DNA from: an uncultured Clostridiaceae bacterium
GTDB lineage: Bacteria; Bacillota; UBA994; PWPR01
DNA length: 64,000 nucleotides
Reading direction: 5' to 3'
NCBI GenBank assembly: GCA_964546025.1
Contig: CAZJHT010000010.1
Location: 175 to 64,174, forward strand
Made by a program: the position numbers and the translations under genes. Shown here one piece after another: positions 9,024 to 32,029 of the stretch. The notes under the pieces are model-generated. The model was not told the origin of the DNA, searched no databases, and was given only the letters and a program-made list of their open reading frames with translations. The number at the start of each line of letters is the position of its first letter. Position 1 is the first letter of the stretch.

Positions 9024-9061
9024 AAACATCCTCAGATATTATGATCTGAGGATGTTTTTTT
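9022..9061. terminator. Bidirectional rho-independent terminator
   Basis: AAAAACATCCTCAGAT-attatg-ATCTGAGGATGTTTTTTT: a 12-bp stem with an A-tract on one side and a T-tract on the other, between convergent genes. Confidence 0.8.
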
Positions 9062-10850
9062 ATTCTCCTACCGCATCAAGCAGTCTTGCGTATTGCACCT
9101 TGTTTAACTCATAATACATCCCTTTGAGGTTCATTAACTCTTCGTGATTTCCTTCTTCAACAATTCTTCCATCATCAATTACTAAAATTCTATCTGCTTT
9201 TCTAATAGTAGATAATCTATGAGCAATGACAAAAGATGTTCTTCCTTCTAAAACTTTTTCAATTGCATCTTGCATCAACTGTTCAGTCTTAGTATCTATA
9301 CTTGATGTTGCTTCATCCAAAATCAATATTTTAGGATCAGAAAGTATAGCTCTTGCAAAACTTATTAATTGCCTCTCGCCTACACTTAATCTTGATCCGC
9401 GTTCTTGAACTTCAGTATCATATCCATTTTCAAACTCACTAATAAATTGATGCGCATTAGCTATCTTCGCAGCTGTTATAATCTCTTCTTCTGTAGCATC
9501 CAGTTTACCATATCTTATATTATCTCTGACTGTTCCAGAAAAAATTAGTGGATCTTGTAATACTATACTCATTTGATTCCTTAGACAATCAATCTCTATA
9601 TCTTTAACATCTATATCATCTATTGTAACTTCTCCATCTTTCACATCATAAAATCTTGGTATTAAGTTTATAATCGTGCTCTTTCCTGCTCCTGTTGGGC
9701 CAACTATAGCAATTGTATCTCCAGGGTTTACATTAAAGCTGACTCCTTGAAGCACTGGTGTGTCTTTATCATATTCAAAAAACACATTCTTAAAATCAAC
9801 TTTTCCTTTAATATCTTCCATTGTTATTGGTTCACTTATATTGAGGATCTCTGGATCAGTGTCAAGTATCCCAAATACACGTTCTGATGAAGCCATTGCA
9901 ACAAGTACTGTGTTATAAAAATTACTCATACTTCTTATAGGTTCCCAGAATCTGCCTATATAATTTATAAAAGCTACTAATATACCTACACTAATTTGTC
10001 CATTAATTACAGAGTATGCTCCATAAGCAAATACAATACAGTTACCAATCGCACTAGTTATCTCTACGGAAGGTCTAAATAGTAGACTTACTTTTGTTGC
10101 ATTAATTTGTGATTCAGTAAACTCAGAATTTACTTCTTCAAACTCCTCTTCACTTTCTCCTTCTTGAGTGAAAGCTTGTATTGTTCTCATACCACTAATA
10201 GATTCTTGTAAAAAAGCATTCATATTAGCTCTTTTTTTCCTTACATCTCTCCAGCTTTCTCTTACATAGTTTCTTAAAACTACCGCTATATAGAAAAGCA
10301 CTGGTAATATGATAAAACTAAATAACGCTAACCTCCAACTCATTATAATCATAATTCCCATTGTCATTAGGAGCGTTACTACATCATTTATTACTTGAAT
10401 CAACCCTGATGTTAATAGCTCATTGAGATTATCAACATCATTGGTAATTCTGACCATAATTTTACCTGCTGGTCTACCATCAAAGAATCGTAAAGATAGC
10501 CTTTGTATATGATCAAATAATTGTTTTCTTAAGTCATATATAATAGATTGTCCTATTTTATTTAGTAAAACTGTTCGCAAATATGCACCAATCATCATAA
10601 CAATTCTTAGCCCTAAATATGTTAGTCCTATTACATGTAGCATAGACATATCTTTTTCAGGCAAAACATTATCAATTGCTTGTTGAATTAACACTGGTCC
10701 TGCAAGTTCTGACATGGACACAGCAATTATGATTACTAATGTTATTACTACCATTTTTGTATATGGCTTTAGATATGATAATAATCTTATGAAGTGCCTT
10801 TTATTAAACTCTTGTTGAAAGTTTTCTCCCTGGTCAAAATTTCTTGCCAT
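9060..10850 (-). CDS. ABC exporter, fused permease/ATPase (heterodimer partner B)
   Basis: Six-TM domain plus NBD with Walker A GPTGAGKST, signature LSVGERQ and Walker B ILILDEATS. Confidence 0.9.
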   Translation of the reverse strand: MARNFDQGENFQQEFNKRHFIRLLSYLKPYTKMVVITLVIIIAVSMSELAGPVLIQQAIDNVLPEKDMSMLHVIGLTYLGLRIVMMIGAYLRTVLLNKIGQSIIYDLRKQLFDHIQRLSLRFFDGRPAGKIMVRITNDVDNLNELLTSGLIQVINDVVTLLMTMGIMIIMSWRLALFSFIILPVLFYIAVVLRNYVRESWRDVRKKRANMNAFLQESISGMRTIQAFTQEGESEEEFEEVNSEFTESQINATKVSLLFRPSVEITSAIGNCIVFAYGAYSVINGQISVGILVAFINYIGRFWEPIRSMSNFYNTVLVAMASSERVFGILDTDPEILNISEPITMEDIKGKVDFKNVFFEYDKDTPVLQGVSFNVNPGDTIAIVGPTGAGKSTIINLIPRFYDVKDGEVTIDDIDVKDIEIDCLRNQMSIVLQDPLIFSGTVRDNIRYGKLDATEEEIITAAKIANAHQFISEFENGYDTEVQERGSRLSVGERQLISFARAILSDPKILILDEATSSIDTKTEQLMQDAIEKVLEGRTSFVIAHRLSTIRKADRILVIDDGRIVEEGNHEELMNLKGMYYELNKVQYARLLDAVGE

Positions 10851-12610
10851 TATTCAGCACCTCCTGCATCTAAGAATGCCTCAAACATATCTTTTTCTTT
10901 GTATTGCTCATCAAAAGTTTGCTTGTAGTATCCATTATTGTTTAGTAACTCTTGGTGTGTTCCTTGCTCTATTATCTCTCCATGGTCAAGTACATAAATA
11001 TAGTCAGTGTTTTTCACTGAGGCTATTCTATGAGCAATAACAATTGTTGTTCTGTTTTTCATAACAGACTCCATATCTTTTTGAATCTGATGTTCTGTTT
11101 CCATATCAACACTTGAAGTAGCATCATCCAAAACAAGTATGCTTGGGTTTCTTACAAGTGCTCTAGCAATAGCAATTCTTTGCTTTTGACCACCTGAAAG
11201 GCCTATACCACGCTCACCTATTGCAGTATCATATCCTTTTTCCATCTCCATGATAAAATCATGCGCTTGTGCTATTTTAGCAGCACTTATTATCTGTTCA
11301 TCTGTTGCCTCAGTATTTCCAAAAGCTATATTATTTTTAATAGTATCAGAGAATAAGAAAATATCCTGGTGAACTATACCAATATCTCTTCTTAAGTCTT
11401 CAAGCTTTATATCCTTAATGTCAGTATCATCTATCTTAATTTCTCCACTTTGACAATCATAAAACCTACTGATCAAACTAATGAAAGATGATTTTCCACT
11501 TCCTGTTTCACCAATGATCCCTATATTATGTCCTGCATCTATTCTTAGTGAAAAGTCTTTTAGCACATCGTTTTCACCATATGAAAAAGTAACATTACAA
11601 AACTCTATATTACCTTTGATCCTTTCTACGCTTACTGCTTGGTCTGAATCCTTGAGTTCGATCTCTGTATCTAATACTTCAAATATTCTATTTCCAGCTG
11701 CAACTGACCTTTCAAAGAAATTGACTAAAAATGCCATTCTTCTAATTGGCCAAATTAGAGAAAAAATATAAGAATAAAACTCTGCCAACTCTCCAACTGT
11801 TATATTATCTAAAATTACTTGATATCCGCCAAACCAAACAACAGCCAAAGCACTTAATCCGCCAAAAAATTGCATTAGTGGCATATATGTTGCTCTTATA
11901 GTAATAGCATTCATCATTTTAGTAAAATAACTAAGATTTTCTTTATCAAATTTTTCTTTTTCATGTTCTTGGGTGTTAAATGCTTTTACAACTCGTACAC
12001 CTGTAATGTTCTCCTGAATTGAGTTTGTCATTACGGCCATTTGCTCCCGTATTTGCATATACGCTGGTCTAATTTTATATGCAAATTTGACTGTTGTTAA
12101 AAACAAAAAAGGCAAAGTTGCTAGTGCTAATAAAGTTAACTGCCAGTTAATTCTTAGTAAAACTACTAGTACAAATGAAAATGTAAATATAGCATCATAT
12201 AATTCCAATAATCCATCTGCTAATAAATGTTTAAGAGAATGAACGTCACTACTAATTCTTGACATTAATTCTCCAGTCCTTGCCTTATCATAATATGAGT
12301 AAGGAAGCTTTACTAAATGAGAAAAAATACTTTTTCTTATATCTTTAATTGCTCCCATAGCGATTCTTTCTGATAAATAGCCTTGAACGAATCTAAAAAT
12401 TCCTCTACCTACTGCTATACCTATCAATGCTGCTATTATCCATGGTAATAAATTTATTTGTGATTCATAGATAACATCGTCAATCAGTACTCGAATAAGC
12501 TTTGGGCGCATCAATCCAAGCACTGTTAAGATAGTCAGCGATACAAATGCTGAAAATAATAGCATTAAATAAGGCCTATAATAACTAAAAATCCTCTTAA
12601 TAGTTTTCAT
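10850..12610 (-). CDS. ABC exporter, fused permease/ATPase (heterodimer partner A)
   Basis: Walker A GETGSGKSS, signature LSGGQKQR and Walker B ILVLDDATS. TAATG overlap with the downstream partner. Confidence 0.9.
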   Translation of the reverse strand: MKTIKRIFSYYRPYLMLLFSAFVSLTILTVLGLMRPKLIRVLIDDVIYESQINLLPWIIAALIGIAVGRGIFRFVQGYLSERIAMGAIKDIRKSIFSHLVKLPYSYYDKARTGELMSRISSDVHSLKHLLADGLLELYDAIFTFSFVLVVLLRINWQLTLLALATLPFLFLTTVKFAYKIRPAYMQIREQMAVMTNSIQENITGVRVVKAFNTQEHEKEKFDKENLSYFTKMMNAITIRATYMPLMQFFGGLSALAVVWFGGYQVILDNITVGELAEFYSYIFSLIWPIRRMAFLVNFFERSVAAGNRIFEVLDTEIELKDSDQAVSVERIKGNIEFCNVTFSYGENDVLKDFSLRIDAGHNIGIIGETGSGKSSFISLISRFYDCQSGEIKIDDTDIKDIKLEDLRRDIGIVHQDIFLFSDTIKNNIAFGNTEATDEQIISAAKIAQAHDFIMEMEKGYDTAIGERGIGLSGGQKQRIAIARALVRNPSILVLDDATSSVDMETEHQIQKDMESVMKNRTTIVIAHRIASVKNTDYIYVLDHGEIIEQGTHQELLNNNGYYKQTFDEQYKEKDMFEAFLDAGGAE

Positions 12611-12627
12611 AAATAGCTCCTTTTAAT

Positions 12628-13077
12628 TTACTCGTCTTGCACTTTGTGTAAGTTTTCCTCCATCATCAAAAGAAATTTTCTCATCAGTGTCATTTCTTCT
12701 TCACTAAAATTTGCATACGTCTCTTGTTCTAATTGCTGGATTTTCTTCTCCAGTTCTTCCTTTACTTCTTTTCCATGGTCAGCTAAATAGATACGTGAAA
12801 CTCTCATATCTTCAGTATCTTGTTCCCTATATATAAAGCCTTTTTTCTCCATTCTTTGAAGCATGCGGGTAACTGTTGCTGGCTGCAAATTTCTATAATT
12901 TGCTATCTCTTTTTGCTTTAGCCCATCATTATCCCATAACAGTTTTAATATTCCTGGTTGACCTCGATGCAATCCTAGGCTGTGGTATAACTTTCTTGCT
13001 CTATTTCTGTGCAAATGAACTACCCTTACAAAAAGTCTATCAACTGACAAATTCTCTGAATCTTCTTTTCTATACAT
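12628..13077 (-). CDS. MarR-family transcriptional regulator
   Basis: 149 aa with a winged helix (LKQKEIANYRNLQPATVTRMLQRMEKKGFIYR). First gene of the ABC exporter operon. Confidence 0.88.
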   Translation of the reverse strand: MYRKEDSENLSVDRLFVRVVHLHRNRARKLYHSLGLHRGQPGILKLLWDNDGLKQKEIANYRNLQPATVTRMLQRMEKKGFIYREQDTEDMRVSRIYLADHGKEVKEELEKKIQQLEQETYANFSEEEMTLMRKFLLMMEENLHKVQDE

Positions 13078-13124
13078 AATAACACTCCTCTCATGATTTA
13101 GTAGACGACTAACTAACTTATTTA

Positions 13125-13153
13125 ATTGTAATATGCAACTAATTCTATGTCAA
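13125..13153 (-). promoter_or_regulatory. Candidate sigma-A promoter (TTGACA-N17-TACAAT) of the MarR-ABC operon
   Basis: Minus strand reads TTGACA (13153-13148), a 17-nt spacer, then TACAAT (13130-13125). An imperfect palindrome TTAGT-N9-ACTAA follows and could be a MarR site. Confidence 0.45.
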
Positions 13154-13154
13154 T

Positions 13155-13183
13155 AAAAAAACCAGGCTTTATGCCTGGTTTTT
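13155..13183. terminator. Rho-independent terminator (bidirectional shape)
   Basis: AAAAAAACCAGGC-tttat-GCCTGGTTTTT. Confidence 0.75.
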
Positions 13184-13187
13184 AAAC

Positions 13188-14801
13188 TTATTTTCTATAC
13201 ACACACTCGCCACCTACATAAGTAGCAAGAACATTTAAGTCTTTAATTCTTTCTGCATCAATTTCCATGATATTTTCTGATAGAACAACAAAATCAGCAA
13301 GTTTATCAATTTCTAAAGATCCTTTGATATGCTCTTTTCTCTCTGCAAAAGCTGAGCCATTAGTAAATAAACCTACAGCTTCATAAGCAGTTAGTTTCTC
13401 ATCTGGCAAGAATCCTCCATCAGGATTACCATCAAGATCTGTTCTTGTCACTGCTGCTGCTAGTCCTAAAATTGGATTGCATGGTTCTACTGGCGAATCA
13501 GAGCCACCTGCAGTAGCAATACCCATTGTCCTCATTGTTTTCCACACATATGATTGCATCGTTCTTGCTTTTCCAAGTCTATCTTCAACAATTTTCATGT
13601 CTGTTGGTACAAAGATAGGCTGAATGTCACAAACTACACCTAGTTCTTTCATCTGCTCTAAGATATGCCAGTTTGTTATTTGAGCATGAATAATTCTAGG
13701 TCTTGCATCTTCCTCTTTTGCATTAGGAATAACCAATTTGAAAGCATTAAGAAGCTTTTGCATTGCAGCATCACCAATAGCGTGAGCTGATAATTGCATT
13801 TTCTTTTCATGTCCTTTTAAGTACATTTCGTTAATCTCATCTTGAGTCATAATTGACACACCACATGTAGTTGCATCATCTGTATAAGGTGCATGCATAT
13901 AGGCAGTTCTGCCTCCTAAAGAACCATCAGTCATTAATTTGAGAGGTCCATATGTAATAGTGTTTTCAGGGAACTGATATCTATCTCTTATTTCAAGATA
14001 CTTATCTATTTCACTTGGGTCAGACAATCTGATTTGATGATCCACTCTTAGTTTTAAACCGTTTTCAACTGCTTCTTGATAGGCTTTTAACTTTTCTTCC
14101 ATACTTCCATCTGGAGACCCTAAATCGTCAGATTGAACTGAAGTAAGACCATAAGATAGTGCTAGTTCTGCACCTTTTTCTATATGTCTGATATAATCTT
14201 CTTTTGTAAATTTGGGAATTAAGTTTGACACAAGTCCCATTGCTCTCTCTCTAAGAATCCCTGTTGGAAATCCATCTTCGCCGATATCTATATGTCCGCC
14301 AACTATTTGCTCCACAGGTGTTTTCATCAGCCCAGCAAGCTCTAAAGCTTTTGTGTTTGCTACACCTACATGTCCACAAGTCCTTCTTAAAAACATAGGT
14401 CTATCAATACTTACTTTATCTAAATCGTGCCTATCTGGCATAACTTGATCTTCAAACTTAGACTGATTCCACCCTCTGCCAAGAACCCATTCTACCTGCT
14501 CGTTCTCTGTTGAAAAATCTTGACACATCTTGATTAACTCATTTCTAGACTTAACTTCGTCTAACATAACTTGCTCAAGTGCCATGCCAATGCTCATTAG
14601 GTGCATATGACTGTCATTTAGTCCTGGAATAATAGTTTTTCCTTCAAGGTCTACTTTTTTAGTGTTATCGTTTACTAAAGCTAAAATGTCATCACTTGAA
14701 CCAATTGCTTTTATGATTCCATTATCTACCAATATAGCATTAGCTTCTTTGCCCTGTGCATCCATTGTGTATATTTTTCCATTAAAAAAAGCTGTTCTCA
14801 T
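13188..14801 (-). CDS. Metal-dependent amidohydrolase (Amidohydro_3 / YtcJ-like)
   Basis: HxH motif (PGLNDSHMHL), internal HAIGD and C-terminal GSD motifs. Start ambiguous: the ATG at 14801 (MRTAFFNGKIY) has AAAGGAG upstream, and the alternative ATG at 14825 has no RBS. Confidence 0.85.
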   Translation of the reverse strand: MRTAFFNGKIYTMDAQGKEANAILVDNGIIKAIGSSDDILALVNDNTKKVDLEGKTIIPGLNDSHMHLMSIGMALEQVMLDEVKSRNELIKMCQDFSTENEQVEWVLGRGWNQSKFEDQVMPDRHDLDKVSIDRPMFLRRTCGHVGVANTKALELAGLMKTPVEQIVGGHIDIGEDGFPTGILRERAMGLVSNLIPKFTKEDYIRHIEKGAELALSYGLTSVQSDDLGSPDGSMEEKLKAYQEAVENGLKLRVDHQIRLSDPSEIDKYLEIRDRYQFPENTITYGPLKLMTDGSLGGRTAYMHAPYTDDATTCGVSIMTQDEINEMYLKGHEKKMQLSAHAIGDAAMQKLLNAFKLVIPNAKEEDARPRIIHAQITNWHILEQMKELGVVCDIQPIFVPTDMKIVEDRLGKARTMQSYVWKTMRTMGIATAGGSDSPVEPCNPILGLAAAVTRTDLDGNPDGGFLPDEKLTAYEAVGLFTNGSAFAERKEHIKGSLEIDKLADFVVLSENIMEIDAERIKDLNVLATYVGGECVYRK

Positions 14802-14854
14802 AAACTTTTCATCTCCTTTTATCATCTAAAGTATATTTTAGCTCATATTCTAAG

Positions 14855-14889
14855 TTAAGAAAAGAGTAACCGCTTAGTTTAAGCGGTTA
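14855..14889 (-). terminator. Rho-independent terminator after the Cu-ATPase gene
   Basis: Minus strand reads TAACCGCTT-aaact-AAGCGGTTA followed by CTCTTTTCTT. Confidence 0.6.
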
Positions 14890-14893
14890 TTTC

Positions 14894-17359
14894 TTAATAT
14901 TTAGGTCTAATATTTGCTCTCTTTAGTAAGTTTGCATTACTCACAACTGTAATCGAGCTTGTAGCCATAGCTAGTTCTGCAATAGCAGGATGTAATAACC
15001 CCAATATAGCAATTGGTACAGCTACAAGGTTATATATAAAGGCCCAAAATAGATTTTGCTTTATCTTTCTAAATGTTGCCTTAGATAGTTTTATAGCACT
15101 TACAACTGCTGATAAATTACCTTGTACAAGGGTTACATCAGAAGCTTCTATTGCTATGTCTGTCCCTGTTCCTATCGCTATACCAACTTCTGCTTGGGTT
15201 AAAGCTGGAGCATCATTAATTCCATCTCCTACCATGGCTACTACTGTTCCTTCATTTTGTATTCTCTTAATCTCTAAAACTTTACCATCAGGCAATACCT
15301 CAGCAATAACTTCTTCAATTCCTGCTATTTTTGCTATAGCTTTTGCTGTTCTTTGATTATCTCCTGTTAACATTACAGTTTTAATGCCCATTTCTTGCAG
15401 TTCTTTAATTGCGTTTTTGGAATCATCTTTTATTGCATCTGCAACTGCTATCATTCCAACAAATGACCCATCTATAGCAACTGCTATTACAGTTTTTGCA
15501 TCTTCTTCTAATTGATTAAACTTTTCTACATCACTTACTTCTATATTGTTCTCATTCATCAACTTTATGCTTCCTACTAGGATTTCTTTGCTATCAGCAA
15601 ATCCCTTTATTCCTCTTCCCGTAAAGGTTTCAAACTTATCTAAATCAAACAAATCAAGATCATCATTAACTGCTTTTGTTATCACTGCTTTAGCTATAGG
15701 GTGCTCTGAGCCTCTTTCTGCACTTGCAGCATATCTCAAAAATTCTTCCTTTGATAAACCATTTGTGATTATATCAGTTACCTCAGGTTTGCCTTTTGTT
15801 ATTGTGCCGGTTTTATCAAATACTATAGTCTTAATTTCTTGAAGTTTCTGTATAGCAGCTCCGTCCCTAAAAATAATACCTGCTTGTGCACCCATTCCGC
15901 TACCGACCATTAAAGCTGTTGGTGTTGCTAGTCCTAATGCACATGGACATGCTATTACAAGTACTGCAACCATAGCATAAATTGCTTGCGCAAACCTATT
16001 AAGGTGACTCTGGAATGTCCATGGGAACACCCTAGATATTAAACTTACAATAGGAGAAGCTAATGCAGCCATTTGGTCTGGGAATACCGCCCATAATAAA
16101 AACGTTACTAAAGCTAAACCCATAACAATAGGTACAAAAACACTTGTTACTTTATCTGCAAATTCTTGTATAGGGACTTTCGTACCTTGTGCTTCTTCAA
16201 CCATCTTTATAACTTGCGATAAGAAAGTATCCTTACCTATTTTTGTAGCCTTTACATGGATCAATCCTTCTTGATTTACTGTTGCACCAATAACTTCCTC
16301 TCCAATTGACTTCCTAACTGGCATTGACTCTCCAGTAACCATAGATTCATCTATAGCACTTTCGCCAAAAACAATTTCTCCATCTGTTGGAATAGAGCTT
16401 CCTGGCTTAACTACTAAAGTATCTCCTATTTCTACTTCTTCTATTGCTATTTCAATTTCTTTACCATCTCTTATTACAAGAGCACTCTTTGCTCCTAATT
16501 CAAGTAATTTCTTAATTGCTTGCGATGCTCTTCCTCTAGCTTTAATTTCTACATACCTACCTGTTAAATGAAACGCCATTATCATTGCTGCTACTCCAGC
16601 AAAGTTAGGTAAATGCACAAAGAAATGCATTATTCCTGTAGAAAAAGCCGCTGCTGTTCCTAATGCTATCAAAGAGTCCATGTTTGGCACCTTATTGAGT
16701 ATTGCTTTAAATCCAGACACCATAGTAACTCTTCCTGGTCCTAATAAGGCGAAACTAGCTAATAATATCATGCCTATTTCATGATACTGTGGAAACGGCC
16801 ATCCATGTTCATACCCTAAAAACATTCCTGGTATCATCCACAGCATAGCTGGAATTGTTACAATCCATACTAGCCACATCTTTTTCTTAGCATCTTTTAT
16901 CATTTTTTCATCTTTATCTACTTCAACTTCATTTGTATCTAGTTCTATTTTATAACCAATCTTATCTACAGCATTTTTCATTTGACTTATGGTAACATTA
17001 TTATTATAACTTACTTTTAGCTTTTCTTGAGCTAAGCTTATAACAGCACTTTCAACGCCATCTATTTGCGAAAGAACTCTTTCGATGTTTTTAGCACATG
17101 ATGCTCAGGTCATTCCTGTTACATTAAAAGAGACTTTGTTTATTTCATCATCTACTTCTGGAGTATATCCAGCATCTTTAATCACTTGTTCCAAATCATC
17201 AATACCTAAGACTGTCTCATCGTAATCAATACTGGCAGTAAGTGTTGCTAAATTTACATTAGCTTGCTTAACTCCAGCTGTTTCAGATAAAACTTTCTCT
17301 ACTCTTGATGAACATGCTGCACAATGCATATCCTCCACTCTTATCTTTATTTTTGCCAT
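14894..17359 (-). CDS. copA: Copper-type P1B heavy-metal ATPase with two N-terminal HMA domains. One in-frame TGA (17105-17107) sits at the first Cys of the second CxxC motif, so it is a candidate selenoprotein.
   Basis: Track ORFs 17105..17359 and 14894..16981 are in the same frame (2466 nt = 822 codons). I translated the gap 16982-17104 and found no other stop. HMA1 is EDMHCAACSS and HMA2 is NVTGMT-TGA-ASCAKNIERVLSQIDGV. Core motifs are CPC (ACPCALGL), DKTGTIT, TGDN and GDGINDAP. Family call about 0.95; the Sec interpretation is lower. Confidence 0.85.
17069..17084 (-). promoter_or_regulatory. Candidate bacterial SECIS-like hairpin downstream of the copA UGA
   Basis: Minus strand reads CGAAAG-AGUU-CUUUCG, a 6-bp stem. 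The stem begins 20 nt after the UGA and the apical loop 26 nt after it. G is the second loop nucleotide. Confidence 0.45.
17105..17107 (-). other. In-frame UGA, candidate selenocysteine codon (UASC in place of CxxC)
   Basis: Plus-strand tca equals minus-strand TGA. It is flanked by ...GGA ATG ACC | TGA | GCA TCA TGT GCT... Confidence 0.6.
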
Positions 17360-17379
17360 AATCCCCTATCCTTTTCTTG

Positions 17380-19632
17380 CTATTTATTATCTTTTAACAA
17401 TCTCATACCATTTAGTATTACCACAAGAGCTGCTCCAGTATCAGCTAAAACTGCAATCCAAAGCGTTAACCATCCTGGGAAAACCATAAATATCGCAGCT
17501 AGTTTAACAACTAATGAAAATGCAATATTTTGCTTTATAATACTAATGGTTCTATTACTAAGTTTAATTGTATATGGCAGCTTATTTAAATCATCTGACA
17601 TTAAAACTATATCAGCAGTATCAAGCGCTGTATCTGTACCTGCTCCTCCCAAAGTAATACCAATATCAGCAAGCGCTAGTGCTGGTGCGTCATTAATTCC
17701 GTCACCAACCATAATGACTTTCTTATATGTATCTTGCAACTCTTTAACTACAACTAGCTTTTCATCAGGCAATAAATTAGCATAGAATTTATCAATCCCT
17801 AAGTTCTTACTAACAGTATTAGCACTATACTCATTATCGCCTGTTAACATAACTATGTTGTCTATTTTGTTTTCCTTTAGACTAACTATTGTTTCTTTTG
17901 ATTCTTCTCTTAGCGTATCTGATATAGTAATTGCCCCTAGCGATACCATATCTTTAATTACTACAACTATAGTTTGTCCGTTTTCATTTGCCTTTTTATA
18001 CGATTCTTTAATATTTTCTAAGTTAACGCCTAGCTCCTTTGCAAATGCTGGTTTTATTACAAGAACTTCAGATCCATCTATATATCCTTTTACTCCTTGG
18101 CCAGTCAATGATTCAAACTTTTCTGCTTTTAAATATTTTACGTTTTTCTCATTTGCATAAGCTAGTATCGCCTTAGCTAGTGGGTGTTCAGAAAAACTCT
18201 CTATGCTAGCTGCATACATGAGTGCCTGATAATCCGTTACATTAATAACTTTTGGCTTACCTATTGTTAAAGTTCCAGTTTTGTCAAATGCAATAGCTTC
18301 AGCTTTCCCAACACCTTCTATATGAGCACCGCCTTTAATTAAAATGCCATTTCTAGCAGCGTTGCCAAGGGCAGACACAATTGATACAGGTGTTGATATA
18401 ACTAAAGCACATGGGCAAGAAACAACTAATAGCGCTATGGCTCTATAAAACCATTCATGGAAGTTCCCACCCAAGAATACTGTGGGAATGAAAACGATAC
18501 TCACAGCTAACAAAATCACAATAGGAGTGTAATACCTAGCAAATGTATCAACAAACCTTTCTGAAGGAGCTTTTTGCCCCTGAGCTTCTTCTACAAGCTC
18601 AATAATTCTATCTAGTGTGGTGCTCCCACTTTCTTTTGTAACACGTACTTCTAAATATCCTTCTTCATTAATGGTCCCAGCATAAACTGTATCCTCCACC
18701 ATTTTATCTACAGGCATTGATTCACCTGTTATAGGTGCTTGATTAACACTAGACTCCCCTGATAAAACTATTCCATCAAGAGCTATCCTATTACCTGGTT
18801 TTATTACTAATATATCATTTATTTTTATCTCATCAACATTAAGTGTTACTTCTTTTCCATGCTTTTTAATAGTAGCCTTTGTTGGTGTAAGATCCATAAG
18901 ATTTCTAATAGACCTTCTTGTCTTATCCATTGAGTAAGATTCAAGTGACTTACCAATCCCAAATAATACTGCAACCATAGCTCCTTCACTATATTCACCA
19001 AGGTAAATCGCTCCTATAATTGCAATTATAAGTAAGACATTCATATCAAGAGGCATCTTATTAACTAAAGCATTAACTCCAGCCTTTGCTGGATAGTAGC
19101 CTGCTAACAATGTTGATAAAATCAACAAGCCATTGATTACTGGTGATGTCTCATAAATAGCCGACCCAATAAATGCTACAGCTAAAACTCCTGTAGCAAT
19201 CAATGTTAGTACTACTTTTAAATCCTGCCACCACTTAGTTTTTTCAAAGCTCACTTCTGTACTTTTTTCTATTTTATACCCAATTTTTTTTACCACTTGA
19301 ATTATTTCATCTGATTTTATATTATGACTAACCCTTAATACTGAAGTATTAAAGTTATACTCTGCAAACTCTACACCATCTATTTGAGCAACTGCTCTTT
19401 GTACCCCTTTGGCACACTCTGGTCAATCTACCCCTGAAACGTAAAACCTATCTTGATTTCTAGCTTTGATAGCTTCATCACTTAAGCCACCTTTAAATTC
19501 CACAACATTATCATTTGTGTGGCTATGATCATGTGAATGGTTTTTGCTGTGCTGGTGATCATGACTGTGATTATGATCATCATCACAATCACTACAACAT
19601 TGTTTTATTTCAACATCTTGACTATGGTCCAT
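17380..19632 (-). CDS. cadA: Cd/Zn/Co-type P1B heavy-metal ATPase with a His-rich N-terminus and one HMA domain. One in-frame TGA (19423-19425) sits at the first Cys of the CxxC motif, so it is a candidate selenoprotein.
   Basis: Track ORFs 19423..19632 and 17380..19296 are in the same frame (2253 nt = 751 codons). I translated the gap 19297-19422 and found no other stop. The N-terminus is CCSDCDDDHNHSHDHQHSKNHSHDHSH and the HMA is FYVSGVD-TGA-PECAKGVQRAVAQIDGV. Core motifs are CPC (SCPCALV), DKTGTLT, TGDN and GDGINDAP. Confidence 0.85.
19386..19397 (-). promoter_or_regulatory. Weak candidate SECIS-like hairpin downstream of the cadA UGA
   Basis: Minus strand reads GAGC-AGUU-GCUC, only 4 bp. 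The stem starts 25 nt after the UGA and the loop 29 nt after it. The loop is the same AGUU as in copA. An alternative hairpin GUGCC-AAAGG-GGUAC at 19401-19415 lies closer to the UGA. Confidence 0.3.
19423..19425 (-). other. In-frame UGA, candidate selenocysteine codon (UPEC in place of CxxC)
   Basis: Plus-strand tca equals minus-strand TGA. It is flanked by ...GGG GTA GAT | TGA | CCA GAG TGT GCC... Confidence 0.6.
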
Positions 19633-19646
19633 TTTCGTAACTCCTA

Positions 19647-19991
19647 TTAAATATGATTCAAGTGTTCTATTCCTTGCTTTATTATTGCCTCAACATGTTC
19701 ATCATCAAGAGAGTAATATACTCTTCTGCCTTCTTTTCTACTCTTTACAAGCCTTGACGCCCTTAAATATCGTAAGTGATGAGAAACATTTGATTGAGTA
19801 GTGTCTAGTATCTCAGATAGATTACACACACATAGCTCATTCAAGGATAAAGCATAAAGCAACTTTGCTCTTGTATCATCAGCCAGTGCTTTAAATAAAT
19901 CTGATAATCCATGTAACTGATCTACCTTTGGTTTAACTTCTTTTATAATCTCATCTTCTACAGATAAAACTTCACAAACTTCTGTTGTCAT
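19647..19991 (-). CDS. ArsR/SmtB-family metal-sensing repressor (CadC/CzrA-like)
   Basis: 114 aa. ELCVCNLSEILDTTQSNVSHHLRYLRASRLV is the family wHTH with the alpha3 Cys pair. Its stop lies 14 nt before the cadA start. Confidence 0.9.
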   Translation of the reverse strand: MTTEVCEVLSVEDEIIKEVKPKVDQLHGLSDLFKALADDTRAKLLYALSLNELCVCNLSEILDTTQSNVSHHLRYLRASRLVKSRKEGRRVYYSLDDEHVEAIIKQGIEHLNHI

Positions 19992-20006
19992 GTTCCACCA
20001 CCTCTG

Positions 20007-20032
20007 AATATATGATTACTTGTTCATATATT
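20007..20032. promoter_or_regulatory. Perfect 9-bp inverted repeat AATATATGA-N8-TCATATATT, candidate ArsR/SmtB operator
   Basis: Seen directly in the sequence. It lies immediately downstream of the predicted -10 of the arsR-cadA-copA promoter, and TGA...TCA half-sites are typical of ArsR-family operators. Confidence 0.5.
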
Positions 20033-20060
20033 ATTATATACCTCTGAGTTATAAAGTCAA
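20033..20060 (-). promoter_or_regulatory. Candidate sigma-A promoter (TTGACT-N16-TATAAT) of the arsR-cadA-copA operon
   Basis: Minus strand reads TTGACT (20060-20055), a 16-nt spacer, then TATAAT (20038-20033). Confidence 0.45.
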
Positions 20061-20061
20061 G

Positions 20062-20102
20062 AAAATAAAAGTAGCTTAACTGCCTTTAGTGGCAATTAAG
20101 CT
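20062..20102 (-). terminator. Rho-independent terminator after the RND gene
   Basis: Minus strand reads AGCTTAATTGCC-actaaa-GGCAGTTAAGCT (one mismatch) followed by ACTTTTATTTTC. Confidence 0.6.
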
Positions 20103-20112
20103 ATCATTATTT

Positions 20113-23100
20113 TCATGCTTCTTTTCTTATTTTACTTGCTAATTTATCTAGTAGTAAGTACATCGCTGGAATAAAAACTAGAGTTAAAAGTGTAGCTACT
20201 GTAATTCCAAAGATAACAGCTATGCCCATAGGAGCAAGTAACTCTCCTCCTTCTCCCAGTCCTAAACTTAGTGGTATTAAAGCTAAGGATGTAGTTAAAG
20301 TTGTTATCAGTATTGGCCTTAACCTTATTGGTCCAGCACTAATAATAGCTGTTTTTATATCTTCTCCAAAATCTCTTCGTCTAGTATTAATGTAATCCAC
20401 AAGTACAATTGCATCATTTACTACAATACCTGCTAAAATAATGGCTCCTATCATAGCGGGAACACTTAATCTATTTCCCGTTAAGAATAGACCCAAAGCT
20501 CCTCCAGAAAAGGAAAGCGGTACAGCAAACATTATAATAAATGGATGTAAGAACGATTCAAACTGACTGGCTAGTACCATATACACGAGTACTATACTTA
20601 GTGCTAGTGCTAATGTCAAATCATTAAGTGCATCTTGTAATTCTGTAAATTCTCCTCCTATACCATAACTATATCCTGGAGGAAAATGATACTCATCTAA
20701 TACCTTTTCAACATCTGCTGAGACACTTCCTAGATCTCGCTGGTATATCTGAGAGCTAACAGTTACTACTCTTTGTTGTGCCTCTCTATCAATTCTTCTA
20801 GGACCTTGAGCAAGCTCAATACTTGCTATTTGAGATAAAGGAATGATTGCTTCTGTTGGCGTATTAATCATTAAATTTGATAAGCTTGCAATTCCTTGAT
20901 TATAAATATCTTCACCTTTTATAACTACATTTATTTCGCTACCTTCATATTTATATCTAGTTACTGTTGACCCTGTCATTATTGTTCTTACTGTATTAGC
21001 CACTTGTGCTGTTGTCAGTCCATACTGGCTAGCCTGCAACCGATCAACTCTTACCTGAATTTCAGGAACACCGCTTGTAAATGAAGATGCAACCATCCTA
21101 GTGCCTTCTACTTGAGAAACAATATTAACTAGTTCACTACTAATTCTTTCAAGCTCATCAAGGTCATCTCCTCTAATAGAGATGCTAATTGGCGCGCCTC
21201 CCATTCCACCTCCTGCAAGAGATGCTGCTGACATGACACTAACGGATATATTAACACCTGGTATATCTCGCACCATATCTCTTACATTATCAGCTAAATC
21301 AGCACTTCTATAGTCTCTATCCATATCTGTCATAACATTAATTGAACTAGAGCCCTTACTTACATTAGAATAGACTGTCTTGATTCCATTGAGGGTCAAG
21401 ATTAAATCTTCAACTTCTTGTGTAACCTCCAATGTTCTCTCAACTGAGGTGCCTGAAGGCATCCTAACATTTACAGAAAACTGCCCTTGATCCACCTCTG
21501 GGAAAAACTCGGTTCCAACCAATAAAATTGAGCTCATTGATATAGCAAAAACTAATACTCCTGCTAAAACTGTCTTTCCTGGGTTATTAATTGCTGCTTT
21601 AAGTAAATTATTGTATTTTTCTCTCAAACTTCCAAGCATTTTGCCTAAAGTTGTTTCTTCTAGCTCTTTTTCTGTGTGGAAAGTATCAAGCAATTTAGAA
21701 GATAACATTGGTATTACAGTTAGTGAAACTGCAAGTGAGGCTAAAAGAGAAAGCGTTATTGTCAAGGCAAGTTCTCTAAATATCTCTGATGTTATTCCTT
21801 CTACAAAAACAATCGGAATAAAAACTGCTACTGTTGTTAGTGTTGAAGCTGTAACTGCCATAGCAACTTCACTAGCACCTTTAATAGCGGCATTTACTTT
21901 ATTTTCTCCACTTTCTCTAAATCTATATATGTTTTCAAGTACAACAATAGAGTTATCTACTAACATTCCTATTGCTAAAGCTAAGCCACCTAAGGTCATC
22001 AGATTTAGTGTTATATTTGCAAAATACAGTAGTACAAATGTAGCTATTACTGATACTGGTATGGCAATAGCTATAATCATTGTAGTTTTAATATTTCTAA
22101 AAAAGAATAATAAAACTAAAATTGCTAATATAGATCCTAAAATTCCGCTTTCAAGTAAATTATCAATAGATAACTCAATGAACTCTGCTTGATTTAGTAT
22201 GGGTTCGATCTCATATTGTGAGTATCGATTAGTAATCTCATCTAAGGCATCCATAACATTTCTTGCAACTCTAACTGTATTAGTACCAGACTGTTTACTT
22301 ACAGATATATCAAGACTTCGCTCTCCATTAGACCTTACTATGCTACTTGATTCAACTTCCACAAAATTAACCTGTGAGATGTCGCCAAGCCTAATAGACT
22401 CACCAGTCCTAAGCATAAATCTCAAATCTCTAATTTCACTAATACTAGTAAACTCACCAATTGTCCTGATGGTAAATTCTTGGTCACCTCTATTAACAAC
22501 TCCACCTGGAAGGTTCAAGTTTTCTGCACCAATCATGCCCATTAATGTGTCTATAGGTATTTGATAACTATGTAAAATCATAGGATCTACAATTATTTCT
22601 ACTTGTCTTGTATATCCTCCATTAACACTAACAGCTGCTACTCCATCAATTCTTTCCAATTGCGGGGACAATATTTCTTCTGCAAACAACTGAAGACTTA
22701 CCAAGTCATCAGTTCCTTTTAGAGATATCTGAACAATAGGCAATGCGTCTGGATCTATTTTTTGCACCACTGGTGCTGATACATCATCTGGGAAAAATGG
22801 CCTAATCATATCAATTCTTTCTCTTAGCTCTAGAGCAGCTTCTCCCATATCTGTACCAAAAGTAAACTCAGCTATTATTAGAGAATTTCCTTCAGATGAC
22901 CTTGATGAAATATTCTCTATTCCACTTATTGTGCCTACTCCTTGTTCTAGTGGCATAGTTACCAGAGACTCAATCTCTTGAGGTCCTACCCCTGGATAAC
23001 TTGTAGATATGACTACTATAGGGAACTCCAAGTTTGGTAATAAATCTATAGGTAGTCTACTAAGTGAAATGAAACCAATAAGTATTACTGCTAATGTTAC

Positions 23101-23148
23101 CATTAAAACTGTTATTGGACGTCTTACAGCTAGTTTCGGTAGTCCCAT
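20113..23148 (-). CDS. RND-family efflux permease (AcrB/HAE-type)
   Basis: About 1010 aa with 12 TM helices and two large loops, and a typical N-terminus AVRRPITVLM. Start trimmed to the ATG at 23148 (MGLPKL), which has GAGG 8 nt upstream. Its stop codon is TGA. Confidence 0.93.
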   Translation of the reverse strand: MGLPKLAVRRPITVLMVTLAVILIGFISLSRLPIDLLPNLEFPIVVISTSYPGVGPQEIESLVTMPLEQGVGTISGIENISSRSSEGNSLIIAEFTFGTDMGEAALELRERIDMIRPFFPDDVSAPVVQKIDPDALPIVQISLKGTDDLVSLQLFAEEILSPQLERIDGVAAVSVNGGYTRQVEIIVDPMILHSYQIPIDTLMGMIGAENLNLPGGVVNRGDQEFTIRTIGEFTSISEIRDLRFMLRTGESIRLGDISQVNFVEVESSSIVRSNGERSLDISVSKQSGTNTVRVARNVMDALDEITNRYSQYEIEPILNQAEFIELSIDNLLESGILGSILAILVLLFFFRNIKTTMIIAIAIPVSVIATFVLLYFANITLNLMTLGGLALAIGMLVDNSIVVLENIYRFRESGENKVNAAIKGASEVAMAVTASTLTTVAVFIPIVFVEGITSEIFRELALTITLSLLASLAVSLTVIPMLSSKLLDTFHTEKELEETTLGKMLGSLREKYNNLLKAAINNPGKTVLAGVLVFAISMSSILLVGTEFFPEVDQGQFSVNVRMPSGTSVERTLEVTQEVEDLILTLNGIKTVYSNVSKGSSSINVMTDMDRDYRSADLADNVRDMVRDIPGVNISVSVMSAASLAGGGMGGAPISISIRGDDLDELERISSELVNIVSQVEGTRMVASSFTSGVPEIQVRVDRLQASQYGLTTAQVANTVRTIMTGSTVTRYKYEGSEINVVIKGEDIYNQGIASLSNLMINTPTEAIIPLSQIASIELAQGPRRIDREAQQRVVTVSSQIYQRDLGSVSADVEKVLDEYHFPPGYSYGIGGEFTELQDALNDLTLALALSIVLVYMVLASQFESFLHPFIIMFAVPLSFSGGALGLFLTGNRLSVPAMIGAIILAGIVVNDAIVLVDYINTRRRDFGEDIKTAIISAGPIRLRPILITTLTTSLALIPLSLGLGEGGELLAPMGIAVIFGITVATLLTLVFIPAMYLLLDKLASKIRKEA

Positions 23149-23149
23149 C

Positions 23150-24253
23150 CTACTCACCTCTAATTACGCGAACTCGGTCACCTTCACTTAGGAAGCTTTG
23201 TCCAGATACAACTACTTCATCACCTTCATTTATACCTGATACTACTTCAATTATTGATCCATTATCAAGCCCTGTTTTAATTTCTACTACTACAGCTTTA
23301 TCGTCTTGTACTAAATATACAATTTCTCTATTATTTCTTATTAATACTGCTTGAGAAGGTATTACAATAGCGTCTTCTCTTGACTCAGTCACAATTTCAA
23401 CTTTTGCATGCATACCTGTTTTGATATCAGAGTCAACTTTCTCAAGAGTAATTTCAGCGCCATACATCAAGCTTGATGCTTCTATTGAGGACCCAATACT
23501 ACTTATTCTTCCCTCATGGTAATAGTCTATTGCTTGAATATTAACCCCAACCTCTTGTCCGACTACTAAATTATTAACCATATTTTCGGTTATATTTATA
23601 CCTATAAGTAACTCACTATCATCTAAAATCACCATTGCTGGCTGCGTATTAGTTGCAATAGATCCTTCTTCTAATACCAAGTTTGTAACAATACCGCTAC
23701 TTGGAGCTTTGATAGTTGTATCTCTATATGCATCACTTGCACTATCAAGTCCGACCTTTGCTTGTCTAACTGCTGACTCTGCTGCCTTTATGGGTTGGTC
23801 TGATGCAGATAGTCTTGCTTGGTCAAGCTGTGATTGACTTATTGCACCTGATTCATAAAGTACTTTTAGTTTTTCATAGTTTTCTTTAGCAGCTTCTACT
23901 TGTTCTTTGGTCATTTCATAATTTGCTTTTGCACTATCATATGCTGCTTGCGCTTGCTCCAACTGTCTAGCACTGTTTGTACCAACAAGAGTGAATAAGT
24001 TTTGGCCAGAACTAACTTTATCACCATTTTCTACAAACAACCTTGCTACTTCTCCTGGCATTTGTATAATTACTGGGATTGTTTTTATTGGTCTTACTCT
24101 CCCTGTAAATGTTGTTATAAATTCAATACTATCTGTTTTAGCATCAATTACTTCAACAGGTGTATATATCTCTTGTTCTTCAACTTCTTCTTGTTGTGAA
24201 CACCCTATTAAAATAAAGATCAATATTAGTAACATAGCCAATACTTTTTTCAT
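23150..24253 (-). CDS. RND periplasmic adaptor (membrane-fusion) lipoprotein
   Basis: Lipobox LIGC after a signal peptide, then coiled-coil, lipoyl-like and beta-barrel regions. Start trimmed to MKKVLAML (ATG at 24253). Confidence 0.9.
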   Translation of the reverse strand: MKKVLAMLLILIFILIGCSQQEEVEEQEIYTPVEVIDAKTDSIEFITTFTGRVRPIKTIPVIIQMPGEVARLFVENGDKVSSGQNLFTLVGTNSARQLEQAQAAYDSAKANYEMTKEQVEAAKENYEKLKVLYESGAISQSQLDQARLSASDQPIKAAESAVRQAKVGLDSASDAYRDTTIKAPSSGIVTNLVLEEGSIATNTQPAMVILDDSELLIGINITENMVNNLVVGQEVGVNIQAIDYYHEGRISSIGSSIEASSLMYGAEITLEKVDSDIKTGMHAKVEIVTESREDAIVIPSQAVLIRNNREIVYLVQDDKAVVVEIKTGLDNGSIIEVVSGINEGDEVVVSGQSFLSEGDRVRVIRGE

Positions 24254-24384
24254 TGCCATTCCCCTTAATGATTCAAACTGTTCACTACTCATTCATAATA
24301 CATCATTTTACAACATAAAAAGAGTATTGAATATGTTTTTTCTCTTTTTTTTACATATCCTACACACATCTTAACTTTTAAACG

Positions 24385-24431: not shown

Positions 24432-24893
24432 CTAAATAACTCCAGTTGCTCTAAGTAACACTTCTGCAATTACTGCTGATCCTACAAATGTTCCTGTAAA
24501 TACTAAAAGAGCTATTACAATAATCTTTGGACCAAGTTTTGCAAAAGAACCAATATCTTTACCGATTGAAATACCAGCATATGCTAGGATTGGCGTACAA
24601 AGAGCAAGGAACTGAACTTTTGATGTATGCTCTAAGAAAAACGCACTTCCTGGTGTCCATGGTAAACTCAAAATTATACCTGTTAAAGATATGTATGCGA
24701 TTGCAGGTAATTTAACTGGTACAAGGTTCTTTAGAGTTAACCCTATTACAACTACACCAAGTAGAATTAAAACACCTAAGACAGCTTGCAATGGGTTTAC
24801 TGGATTACCAGCTCTATATGTAAATATCCAGTTACCTATTAATGTTATTACACTTGAAATTAAAAGAATTCTTACTTGCTTTGCTAATTCCAT
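24432..24893 (-). CDS. Small polytopic membrane protein (about 4-5 TM), function unknown
   Basis: 153 aa and hydrophobic throughout. TAATG overlap with the upstream membrane-protein gene suggests translational coupling. Confidence 0.6.
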   Translation of the reverse strand: MELAKQVRILLISSVITLIGNWIFTYRAGNPVNPLQAVLGVLILLGVVVIGLTLKNLVPVKLPAIAYISLTGIILSLPWTPGSAFFLEHTSKVQFLALCTPILAYAGISIGKDIGSFAKLGPKIIVIALLVFTGTFVGSAVIAEVLLRATGVI

Positions 24894-25716: not shown

Positions 25717-27027
25717 CTAATTATTTGTTAAATCTCGCCACATTTTTAAATATTCATCTTTTGACATAACTTGCTCATAATTACTAGCTACTTCTTTAGC
25801 TTTTGAAGCATTATCAAATAGTAAGTCTATCACAGTCATAGCCATACATTTTGCTGGAACTACATAAGCAGCTACTTCATCAGCAATTTTATAGTCTCTT
25901 GTATGAGCAGTACCTGAAATACCACCTGTATAAGGATGAATTGATGGTACTATATGACTAACATCTCCCATGTCAGTTGAACCACCAATTTTTTCAGCAA
26001 TGTAAACATTGTCTTCTCCAACAACTTGATTAGCATTATCTCTAAATAATTCTGTCATAATCTCTTCTTGAATCATCGGCAAATATCCTGGGATTTCAGT
26101 AATCTCTACCTTAGCCCCTACAGAAATTGCTCCGCCTTTTAGCGCATTATTAACTTTACTATTAGCATCGATAATTGCATCTAAGTTGCTTCCTCTAACA
26201 TATGTTTCAAGTTTCACTTCAGATGGGACTATATTTACTAAATCTCCACCTTTAGTAATGATAGGATGAACTCTTATTGCATCATTATCTCTAAATGTTT
26301 CTCGATTAGCATGAATACCCATAAGTCCTAGCATAGCTGCATTAAGAGCATTAACTCCTTCATGAGGTGATCCACCTGCATGTGCTTCTTTTCCTAGATA
26401 TTTTACAGTTTTACCAATAAATCCATTACTACCTCCACCAACAAATACACTTTTATCAGGGGATGATGAATTACTATGGATCATCATAGCTACATCAACA
26501 TCATCAAATTCTCCAAACTTAATGAGTTCTTGCTTACCTCCCATAAACTCAATCTCACCATCTGCTTGTAGCCTCTGACGATACTCTAACTCTACAAACT
26601 CTTCAGCTGGTACAGCAATAAGCTTGACTATACCATCTAAGTGCTCCATTACTTTACTTTCTGACAAACCGATTGTCACACCAAGCAAAGCTGCAATCAT
26701 AGCATTATGTCCACATGCATGAACTGCACCTGTTTCTTTATCAGCATCTGGATGTTCATAACAAAGCACAGCATCAAGCTCACCAAGTACTGCTACTTTT
26801 GCTTCGTTGCTTTTACCAGCTAACTCTCCAATTACGCCAGTTCTTGCAACTTCTGAACGATAACTAACACTATACTTATCAAAAGTATCTTTTACTAATT
26901 GAGCAGTTTTAAATTCTTTATAGCCAAGTTCAGGGTTTTCCCAAATTTGTCTGCCAATAGCAATAATCTCTTCTTGATTAGTATCGATTGCTTCAAGTAC
27001 TAATTTTTTTAGTTCTTGTTTATTCAC
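25717..27027 (-). CDS. M20D-family amidohydrolase (aminoacylase / AbgB-like)
   Basis: Metal-ligand motif HACGHN and M20 dimerisation-domain topology. Start trimmed to the GTG at 27027 (VNKQELKK), with AGGAGG 7 nt upstream. Confidence 0.85.
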   Translation of the reverse strand: MNKQELKKLVLEAIDTNQEEIIAIGRQIWENPELGYKEFKTAQLVKDTFDKYSVSYRSEVARTGVIGELAGKSNEAKVAVLGELDAVLCYEHPDADKETGAVHACGHNAMIAALLGVTIGLSESKVMEHLDGIVKLIAVPAEEFVELEYRQRLQADGEIEFMGGKQELIKFGEFDDVDVAMMIHSNSSSPDKSVFVGGGSNGFIGKTVKYLGKEAHAGGSPHEGVNALNAAMLGLMGIHANRETFRDNDAIRVHPIITKGGDLVNIVPSEVKLETYVRGSNLDAIIDANSKVNNALKGGAISVGAKVEITEIPGYLPMIQEEIMTELFRDNANQVVGEDNVYIAEKIGGSTDMGDVSHIVPSIHPYTGGISGTAHTRDYKIADEVAAYVVPAKCMAMTVIDLLFDNASKAKEVASNYEQVMSKDEYLKMWRDLTNN

Positions 27028-27081
27028 TACAGCACCTCCTTTTTTTATTTCACACTTATTATACACTTTTTTAACAAAAAG

Positions 27082-27120
27082 TTAAGAGTATACAGTATAT
27101 ATAGTACAGTACACTCTTAA
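27082..27120 (-). terminator. 12-bp inverted repeat (one mismatch) with a U-rich tail, either a terminator or an operator between two hydrolase genes
   Basis: Minus strand reads TTAAGAGTGTAC-N15-GTATACTCTTAA followed by CTTTTTGTT. A TATAAT at 27063-27058 follows, so this may also be a promoter/operator region for the M20D unit. Confidence 0.5.
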
Positions 27121-27183
27121 TTGTATGATATATTATTCATTTTACTTCGTATTTATAGGTGAAAATACATTAATTACTAATTT

Positions 27184-28830: not shown

Positions 28831-28852
28831 AAATTAACCCCCTTATTTAACT

Positions 28853-28885
28853 ATAGCCACAAAAGTGTTTAGCTTTTGTGGCTAT
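28853..28885. other. 13-bp perfect intergenic hairpin without a proper U-tract on the transcribed (minus) strand
   Basis: ATAGCCACAAAAG-tgtttag-CTTTTGTGGCTAT. On the minus strand it is followed by AGTTAAATAAGG, so it is more likely an mRNA processing or stability element than an efficient terminator. Confidence 0.4.
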
Positions 28886-28892
28886 CTATTTG

Positions 28893-30083: not shown

Positions 30084-30142
30084 TAGTACCCTCCTAATAT
30101 TTGAGTCTATATAATTAATTCGACAAGCTAAAGATAATTCCT

Positions 30143-31860: not shown

Positions 31861-31888
31861 AACAATACTCCTTTCGTTAGTTTTATAT

Positions 31889-31937
31889 ACAAAAATAAAG
31901 CCCAAAGGACGATATTAAGACTCGTCCTTTGGGCTTT
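31889..31937 (-). terminator. Intrinsic terminator forming the riboswitch expression platform
   Basis: Minus strand reads AAAGCCCAAAGGACG-agtcttaatat-CGTCCTTTGGGCTTT followed by ATTTTT, a 15-bp stem ending about 30 nt before the MFS start. Confidence 0.7.
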
Positions 31938-32022: not shown

Positions 32023-32029
32023 GCATGAT

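Follow-up and report, generated by a model that had tools for sequence, protein, structure and literature searches.

Selenocysteine (Sec)-containing transporters were first reported in 2005, from Carboxydothermus hydrogenoformans (CHY0860 and CHY0565; PMC1287953), in a text that leaves open which of the two is the ATPase; ABB15669.1, from the same organism, is the reference Sec-ATPase. A family of Sec-containing cation-transporting ATPases, characterized by a UxxC motif (U, Sec), has been listed repeatedly (PMC1976440; PMC2398784; PMC5029168; PMC9312934; PMC13188914), in works that include the 2007 Olavius symbiont and the 2008 GOS analyses as well as reviews of 2022 and 2026, whereas a paper of 2006 makes no mention of it (PMC1794560). 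A survey published in 2016 counted 32 Sec-ATPase genes in 25 organisms (PMC5029168), and the 2026 review states that the roles of transporter selenoproteins 'require further investigation'. Here, we describe a gene, hereafter cadA, found in a 64,000-nucleotide stretch of DNA from an uncultured Clostridiaceae bacterium (contig CAZJHT010000010.1, positions 175 to 64,174; this whole stretch is referred to below as the window). The gene is predicted to code for a heavy metal-exporting P1B-ATPase of the Zn/Cd type, and a TGA codon within its reading frame (19423-19425) is very probably recoded as Sec, so that the CxxC motif of the N-terminal HMA domain becomes UxxC.

cadA is a further member of the Sec-ATPase family predicted since 2005 and, because UxxC P-type ATPases have been predicted since then, it does not represent a new class of selenoproteins. 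Like the published members, it was identified by Sec/Cys homology, matches TIGR01525, has a UGA in place of the first Cys of CxxC and has a stem-loop after the UGA. What is specific to cadA, with ABB15669.1 compared by description only, is its Zn/Cd subtype (TIGR01512), its pairing with a second Sec-type pump gene, copA, in a predicted CadC-regulated operon, its occurrence in an uncultured clostridial lineage in which its retrieved orthologues are mis-annotated as truncated proteins, and a covarying hairpin that precedes the loop of the Sec insertion sequence (SECIS). With the Cys-type pumps CadA and ZntA (4UMV, 7QBZ), cadA shares the order of the domains (a His/Cys-rich tail, the HMA domain and the pump core), the CPC, DKTGT, N-x7-K, DxG and GDGINDAP motifs, and a location downstream of a gene for a CadC/ArsR-type repressor; unlike them, it has a UGA at the first ligand Cys of the HMA domain and RNA hairpins inside the HMA coding sequence. 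Replacement of Cys by Sec in the metal-binding loop of an HMA fold is also a feature of the 'UxxU metal-binding (seleno)protein' family, NF041115, and of the selenoproteins MerP and MerT (named in PMC2398784 and PMC13188914). However, proteins of the NF041115 type are small, stand-alone and have UxxU, whereas cadA has a single Sec (UxxC) in a pump's regulatory domain; cadA did not match NF041115 at E <= 1e-5, and the second HMA domain of copA scored 86.8 bits, under the cut-off of 95.

The features of cadA that are needed for the following are:

17380..19632 (-): cadA-like gene for a Zn/Cd-type P1B-ATPase, 750 residues if the TGA at 19423-19425 is decoded
19423..19425 (-): in-frame TGA, proposed Sec codon; codon 70, at the first Cys of the CxxC motif of the HMA domain (SGVD-U-PEC)
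19513..19632 (-): His/Asp/Cys-rich tail, about the first 40 residues, N-terminal to the HMA domain, as read in the translation
19273..19446 (-): HMA domain (PF00403), residues 63-120, interrupted by the TGA after the first beta-strand
19641..19645 (-): AGGAG ribosome-binding site, 8 nt upstream of the ATG at 19632

A single cadA frame of 751 codons, which ends with a TAG (17380-17382) and has the TGA as its sole internal stop, takes in two open reading frames (ORFs), 19423..19632 and 17380..19296. Direct translation gives NQDRFYVSGVD-TGA-PECAKGVQRAVAQIDGVEFAEYNF around this codon; past the TGA, after NQDRFYVSGVD, the frame reads PECAKGVQRAVAQIDGV, and the N-terminus is CCSDCDDDHNHSHDHQHSKNHSHDHSH. 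The AGGAG sequence ahead of the ATG implies that translation begins upstream of the TGA. In profile searches, for which a Cys was modelled in place of the TGA, Pfam HMA (PF00403) matched residues 63-120 (E 2.4e-11; 44.3 bits for a cut-off of 24.8), a match that spans the metal-binding loop and codon 70; E1-E2_ATPase and Hydrolase were also matched. A preliminary description of this DNA had proposed that the two ORFs share one frame interrupted by a lone TGA where the HMA motif would have its first Cys, that the N-terminal tail is rich in His and Asp, that the pump is of the Cd/Zn type and that the neighbouring, paralogous pump gene is hit at the same position of the motif; all of this agrees with the translations and profile matches reported here, the TGA of copA taking the place of the first Cys in the second HMA domain (see below).

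The assignment of cadA as a Zn/Cd/Pb-type (P1B-2) export ATPase is supported, as a prediction, by a score above cut-off against TIGR01512 (cadmium subfamily; 528.3 bits, cut-off 313.5), by ZntA (4UMV, E 2.4e-128) and CadA (7QBZ) as the closest solved structures, and by the presence in the translation of CPC (SCPCALV), N-x7-K (QNIAFSLVVK) and DxG (LADTGAA), along with DKTGT and GDGINDAP. In the Arguello classification, the P1B-2 signature consists of CPC in TM4, N-x7-K in TM5 and DxG in TM6, and by likeness to known pumps the cadA motifs would be placed on the same segments. The score against TIGR01525 (heavy metal translocating P-type ATPase) is 617 bits (cut-off 346.25), while the values for the ZntA equivalogs are below cut-off (540.8 against 1240 for NF033775; 639.7 against 1005 for PRK11033). 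Thus, by its profile scores, cadA appears to be a P1B-2 family member and no ZntA equivalog.

The preliminary description had called for an alignment of orthologues with Cys or Sec at this position and for folding of the RNA. Orthologues were gathered from the DNA of the nearest database relatives and with the pattern GAYTGACCNGARTGYGCNAARGG, which gave five and four matches in genome and metagenome collections, respectively; four loci (L007 and L009-L011) were discarded as chance matches of the pattern in high-GC sequence that does not code for an HMA domain. Ten distinct orthologues (that of the window, L001-L006 and L014-L016) have the TGA at this very codon; their proteins are 38-84% identical in pairwise comparisons. 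Both flanks of the UGA are conserved in all of the orthologues, FYVSGVD upstream and PECAKG[VI]QRAVA downstream; the His-rich tails vary in length and sequence among the 10, yet in every one of them the tail is open and shares the frame of the TGA, and no further disruption is found across 700 codons. Moreover, 14 contigs, which come from several assemblies (Logan SRR36579053 and ENA ERZ27252282 among them), carry the 69-residue ORF that ends at the TGA of the window. The nearest named genome is that of Clostridium sp. 'deep sea', with 58% identity in PolA, and the lineage of the window is one of uncultured Clostridia; identities in PolA track those in cadA, which suggests that the Sec-type pump has been inherited vertically within the lineage.

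One orthologue, in locus L013 (P0005), has TGT, for Cys, at the UGA codon (position 1569; SGIDCPECAKG), and more than 100 further homologues have CxxC at the aligned position, as do all of the more distant ones. The L013 protein is 69% identical to that of L003 and lies inside the Sec clade, beside L003 and L005, in a neighbour-joining tree; copA of the same locus still has its TGA (5390). Because it is nested among Sec forms, has lost the SECIS-like hairpin H2 and shows a U.U mismatch in a pair of the hairpin H1 (both hairpins are described below), the cadA gene of L013 looks like a reversion from Sec to Cys followed by decay of the SECIS.

Three hairpins are relevant to the decoding of the UGA codons of cadA and copA, with positions counted from the U of the UGA as nt 1:

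19386..19397 (-): hairpin H2 of cadA, GAGC-AGUU-GCUC, nt 29-40, proposed SelB-binding apical stem-loop
19400..19416 (-): hairpin H1 of cadA, UGUGCC-AAAGG-GGUACA, nt 10-26, conserved hairpin in the spacer that separates the UGA from H2
17069..17084 (-): putative SECIS hairpin of copA, CGAAAG-AGUU-CUUUCG, nt 24-39, -4.6 kcal/mol, spacing 26 nt

According to the published rules of the general model by Zhang and Gladyshev, a bacterial SECIS (bSECIS) has an apical loop of 3-9 nt, an upper stem that is 4 bp or longer, a G as the first or second nucleotide of the loop, a spacing of 16-37 nt between UGA and loop, and a minimum free energy (MFE) of -7.5 kcal/mol or lower (PMC13188914). H2 agrees with all of these: its 4-nt AGUU loop has G as the second nucleotide, its stem, of 4 bp, is of the minimum length, and its spacing is 29 nt. 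Folding of the 45 nt that follow the cadA UGA gives an MFE of -12.4 kcal/mol, and H2 alone gives -5.3 kcal/mol as a 16-mer (z -3.0) and -3.8 kcal/mol as a bare stem. The positions that the preliminary description had given for GAGC-AGUU-GCUC (stem 25 nt and loop 29 nt after the UGA) and for the core of H1, GUGCC-AAAGG-GGUAC (starting 7 nt after the UGA), were found to be correct. The four core pairs of H2 are 97% paired across the 10 sequences, and the stem extends to 5-7 bp in L003, L005 and L015. In L016 (5878..5922), a change of Ala to Ser breaks the GAGC/GCUC stem, and an alternative hairpin with -5.6 kcal/mol and a spacing of 26 nt, GCAACG-GUC-CGUUGC, lies across the place of H2; RNAfold, however, favours over this hairpin a long helix that includes the UGA. 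H2 resembles the bacterial SECIS of the E. coli fdhF type in being a stem-loop in the coding sequence after the UGA, with a small loop in which G is followed by U, and differs from it in its very short stem, mostly of 4 bp, and in the covarying H1 that fills the spacer. The loop of the fdhF SECIS is GGUC, as is that of H2 in L005, and it is about 10 nt nearer the UGA than the loop of H2.

Each of the 10 Sec forms is predicted to fold H1, in one of two registers (nt 9/10-25/26) that depend on a Gly codon. Its pair nt 12-24, which joins the third position of the Cys codon to the third position of a Val/Ile codon, covaries, being UA in six sequences and CG in four, with none unpaired. H1 was rejected as the SelB-binding element itself, as its spacing is 12 nt and neither of the first two positions of its loop is a G, and both features fall outside the bSECIS rules; also rejected was a closing helix formed at long range by ACCA and UGGU, which some sequences were predicted to have and which is not conserved, for example, in L001. 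The copA hairpin has the same AGUU loop as H2 and is 100% paired in six sequences, in which the closing pair is UA, CG or AU.

Across both genes, a hairpin that complies with the rules is found at 16 of 16 Sec sites (10 in cadA and six in copA; -3.8 to -6.7 kcal/mol), while at none of seven Cys control sites (the first HMA domains of six copA genes and cadA of L013) is there one better than -1.5 kcal/mol; common descent links the sites, so that the counts should not be read as independent probabilities. A background scan with the SECIS rules reached -4 kcal/mol at 3.2% of 3,000 random positions in the window, and a search of the whole window against Rfam at the gathering threshold gave no match. 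In a codon alignment of 710 columns, the five windows of 12 codons, of about 700, that vary least at synonymous sites start 3-8 codons after the UGA, with a synonymous variation of 0.34 against a mean of 0.56 for the gene; this lowest variation of the whole gene falls over H2, and codons +10 to +13 after the UGA are nearly invariant at synonymous sites. Together, the hairpin and the synonymous evidence show a constraint at the RNA level that is tied to the UGA.

Elsewhere in the window TGA is used as a standard stop: it terminates five long ORFs matched by Pfam, such as the AcrB-type ORF 20113..23157, and no convincing case of an in-frame TGA was seen besides the two HMA sites. In a crude scan of the window for pairs of ORFs joined by a TGA only copA stood out; cadA was missed because several in-frame TGAs precede its start, where the frame overlaps arsR. 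Selenium metabolism is represented near these operons by a single gene, selU, for the tRNA 2-selenouridine synthase (Rhodanese and AAA_SelU), which adjoins the pump genes in L003 (7526..8575) and L013 (4072..5112) and is preceded in both by a small DUF1540 gene, which gives indirect evidence of selenium use in these relatives; selU is absent from the window, and the Pfam survey of the 48 ORFs of the window found no other family of selenoproteins.

The conserved TGA, the selection at the protein level on both of its sides, the Sec/Cys pair formed with L013, the standard use of TGA as a stop, the hairpins, the synonymous minimum and the precedent of the predicted UxxC ATPases support recoding of UGA 19423-19425 as Sec, which is the only reading that fits all of the comparative evidence and which the preliminary description had also preferred. 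Several observations weigh against it. No selA, selB, selC or selD gene was found in the window or the related loci, and no tRNA-Sec by tRNA scans of the window and 10 related loci. H2 has only 4 contiguous bp, the minimum for a bSECIS, in seven of the 10 cadA sequences; random sampling of the window finds a hairpin as good at about 3-5% of positions, and shuffle controls for the structure of cadA as a whole were only moderately convincing. The SECIS support for this gene taken by itself had been called modest in the preliminary description, a fair judgement for the single sequence; the support becomes much stronger when orthologues are compared. The conservation of H2 could also in part reflect the conserved RAVA peptide and an AT-rich codon bias, and cadA itself has no more than one close Cys-form control, L013. 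Finally, experimental proof of Sec in any P-type ATPase was not found in the literature searched.

If the UGA were a genuine stop, the locus would produce a 69-residue His-rich peptide and, from an internal start, a functional pump devoid of the HMA domain. The gene calls of JGI, NCBI, ENA and Logan, which give truncated pumps of 638-685 residues, are in line with this, as is the absence of sel genes and of tRNA-Sec from the loci surveyed; moreover, P1B-ATPases without N-terminal metal-binding domains often still transport. We nevertheless consider a genuine stop very unlikely. No internal start is conserved among the orthologues, the called start being different in each, which weighs against re-initiation at the GTG at 19296, named in the preliminary description as a finding that would refute recoding; the 42 codons between the TGA and this GTG encode a conserved HMA core under selection at the protein level, and beta-strand 1 of the HMA domain (FYVSGVD) is conserved upstream of the TGA. 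One would not expect a stop to coincide precisely with the Cys codon of two paralogous domains, nor to be replaced by TGT in L013, and it would leave both the synonymous constraint and the hairpins that follow the TGA unexplained.

Reading of the UGA without selenium, either by a near-cognate or suppressor tRNA that brings in Trp, Cys or Arg or through a non-standard genetic code, has in our view a smaller chance still of being correct. The codes in question, 4 and 25, are excluded by the ordinary use of TGA as a stop elsewhere in the window, where it ends the five long Pfam-matched ORFs; replacement of the ligand Cys by Trp or Arg would destroy the metal site, and the position alternates only with Cys. 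It is true that one gene caller placed a Trp at the site in P0004 (Logan) and that a UGA followed by C is a leaky context for termination, and such read-through could be a minor pathway when selenium is scarce; a hairpin with a GU loop at SECIS distance is, however, a signature of decoding that depends on SelB. As to a pseudogene, or an error of sequencing or assembly, a fresh nonsense mutation or a wrong base call would indeed, in one sequence, look like a gene that is intact but for a lone in-frame stop. Yet the boundary of the 69-residue ORF recurs on the 14 contigs, and the same TGA stands between conserved flanks in 10 diverged orthologues that are otherwise undisrupted; a sequencing error, named in the preliminary description as a way in which recoding could fail, and a decayed gene are thus almost certainly the wrong explanation.

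Under Sec recoding, translation would start at the ATG at 19632, behind the AGGAG sequence, and SelB with Sec-tRNA(Sec) would be recruited to the UGA by the AGUU loop of H2, 29 nt downstream, with H1 occupying the spacer between the two; after insertion of Sec, the ribosome would continue through the remainder of the HMA domain and the pump. copA would use the same device in its second HMA domain. The sequences show the structure of the gene, the conservation of the UGA, the Sec/Cys pair and the RNA constraint, whereas Sec insertion itself, the binding of SelB and any functional effect of selenium on the metal site are inferred. By analogy with known pumps, the HMA domain is probably a regulatory metal-binding domain and not the transport site. 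At neutral pH a selenolate ligand would be ionised, and soft metals would be bound more tightly by it; UxxC would form a selenol-thiol metal site. A more speculative possibility, which we hold to be rather unlikely, is that the two UGAs make the operon a selenium-gated module for metal resistance and that H1 is part of a two-hairpin variant of the SECIS. If so, both pumps would, when selenium is present, have selenol-thiol regulatory sites of altered affinity or selectivity, with, for example, much tighter sensing of Cd, Hg or Cu; when it is lacking, the UGA would terminate translation or the pumps made would be HMA-less. A two-hairpin SECIS would lie outside the single stem-loop model of the bSECIS.

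The recoding also bears on annotation. The nearest database relatives of cadA are almost all HMA-less, with called N-termini just after the site equivalent to the UGA, and the retrieved members P0001, P0002, P0004, P0006-P0009, P0011, P0044 and P0049 are truncated pumps of this kind with arbitrary, differing starts, the upstream part being left as a small orphan ORF; a look-up of the 638-residue truncated product P0001 returned no record. Recognition of the recoding would correct the models of two pumps per genome in this uncultured clostridial lineage. It would also make the operon a natural system for studying a selenolate in a metal-binding, rather than a redox, site, with a comparison set that comprises two paralogous Sec pumps, a Cys revertant and a CadC-type regulator; no experimental test of this question for the predicted Sec P-type ATPases was found in the literature searched.

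Two genes flank cadA in the same orientation:

19647..19991 (-): ArsR/SmtB-family metalloregulator, CadC-like, with the motif ELCVCNL (PF01022, E 2.1e-16; NF033788, 104.8 bits against 55)
14894..17359 (-): copA-like gene for a Cu-type P1B-ATPase (TIGR01511, 569 bits against 397), with a TGA at 17105-17107

The arsR gene ends 14 nt upstream of the ATG of cadA, and the start of copA lies 20 nt beyond the stop of cadA; arsR also precedes cadA in L001-L003, L013, L014 and L016. From this arrangement, arsR (cadC-like), cadA and copA probably form one operon with two Sec-type pumps. In copA, which scores 626.4 bits against TIGR01525 (cut-off 346.25), the first HMA domain is an ordinary Cys form (MHCAAC), and the TGA at 17105-17107 falls at the first Cys of the second (GMT-TGA-ASCAKNIERV), where UxxC would be U-A-S-C; this TGA is kept in six loci (the window, L001, L002, L004, L013 and L014).

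The gene order around the pumps (9060..24292 (-) in the window) is shared with L003, L014 and L016, and runs from a membrane-fusion protein and an AcrB-type RND pump through ArsR, cadA (Sec) and copA (Sec) to Amidohydro_3, MarR and two ABC exporters; it is complete only in L014 and partial in L003 and L016. The window contig carries polA, as apparently does the contig of L016. Three ORFs of 153-224 residues, 24432..24893 (-), 39474..40148 (+) and 51975..52481 (-), were not matched by Pfam at E <= 1e-5, and of these the first lies directly downstream of a DUF3100 gene. The window also has an unusually dense set of four M20 peptidase and three Amidohydro_3 paralogues (25717..35018 (-), 13188..14825 (-) and 37873..39474 (+)), accompanied by DUF3100, MFS and GNAT genes, which suggests an island for the catabolism of peptides or N-acyl-amino acids that is unrelated to the Sec pumps.

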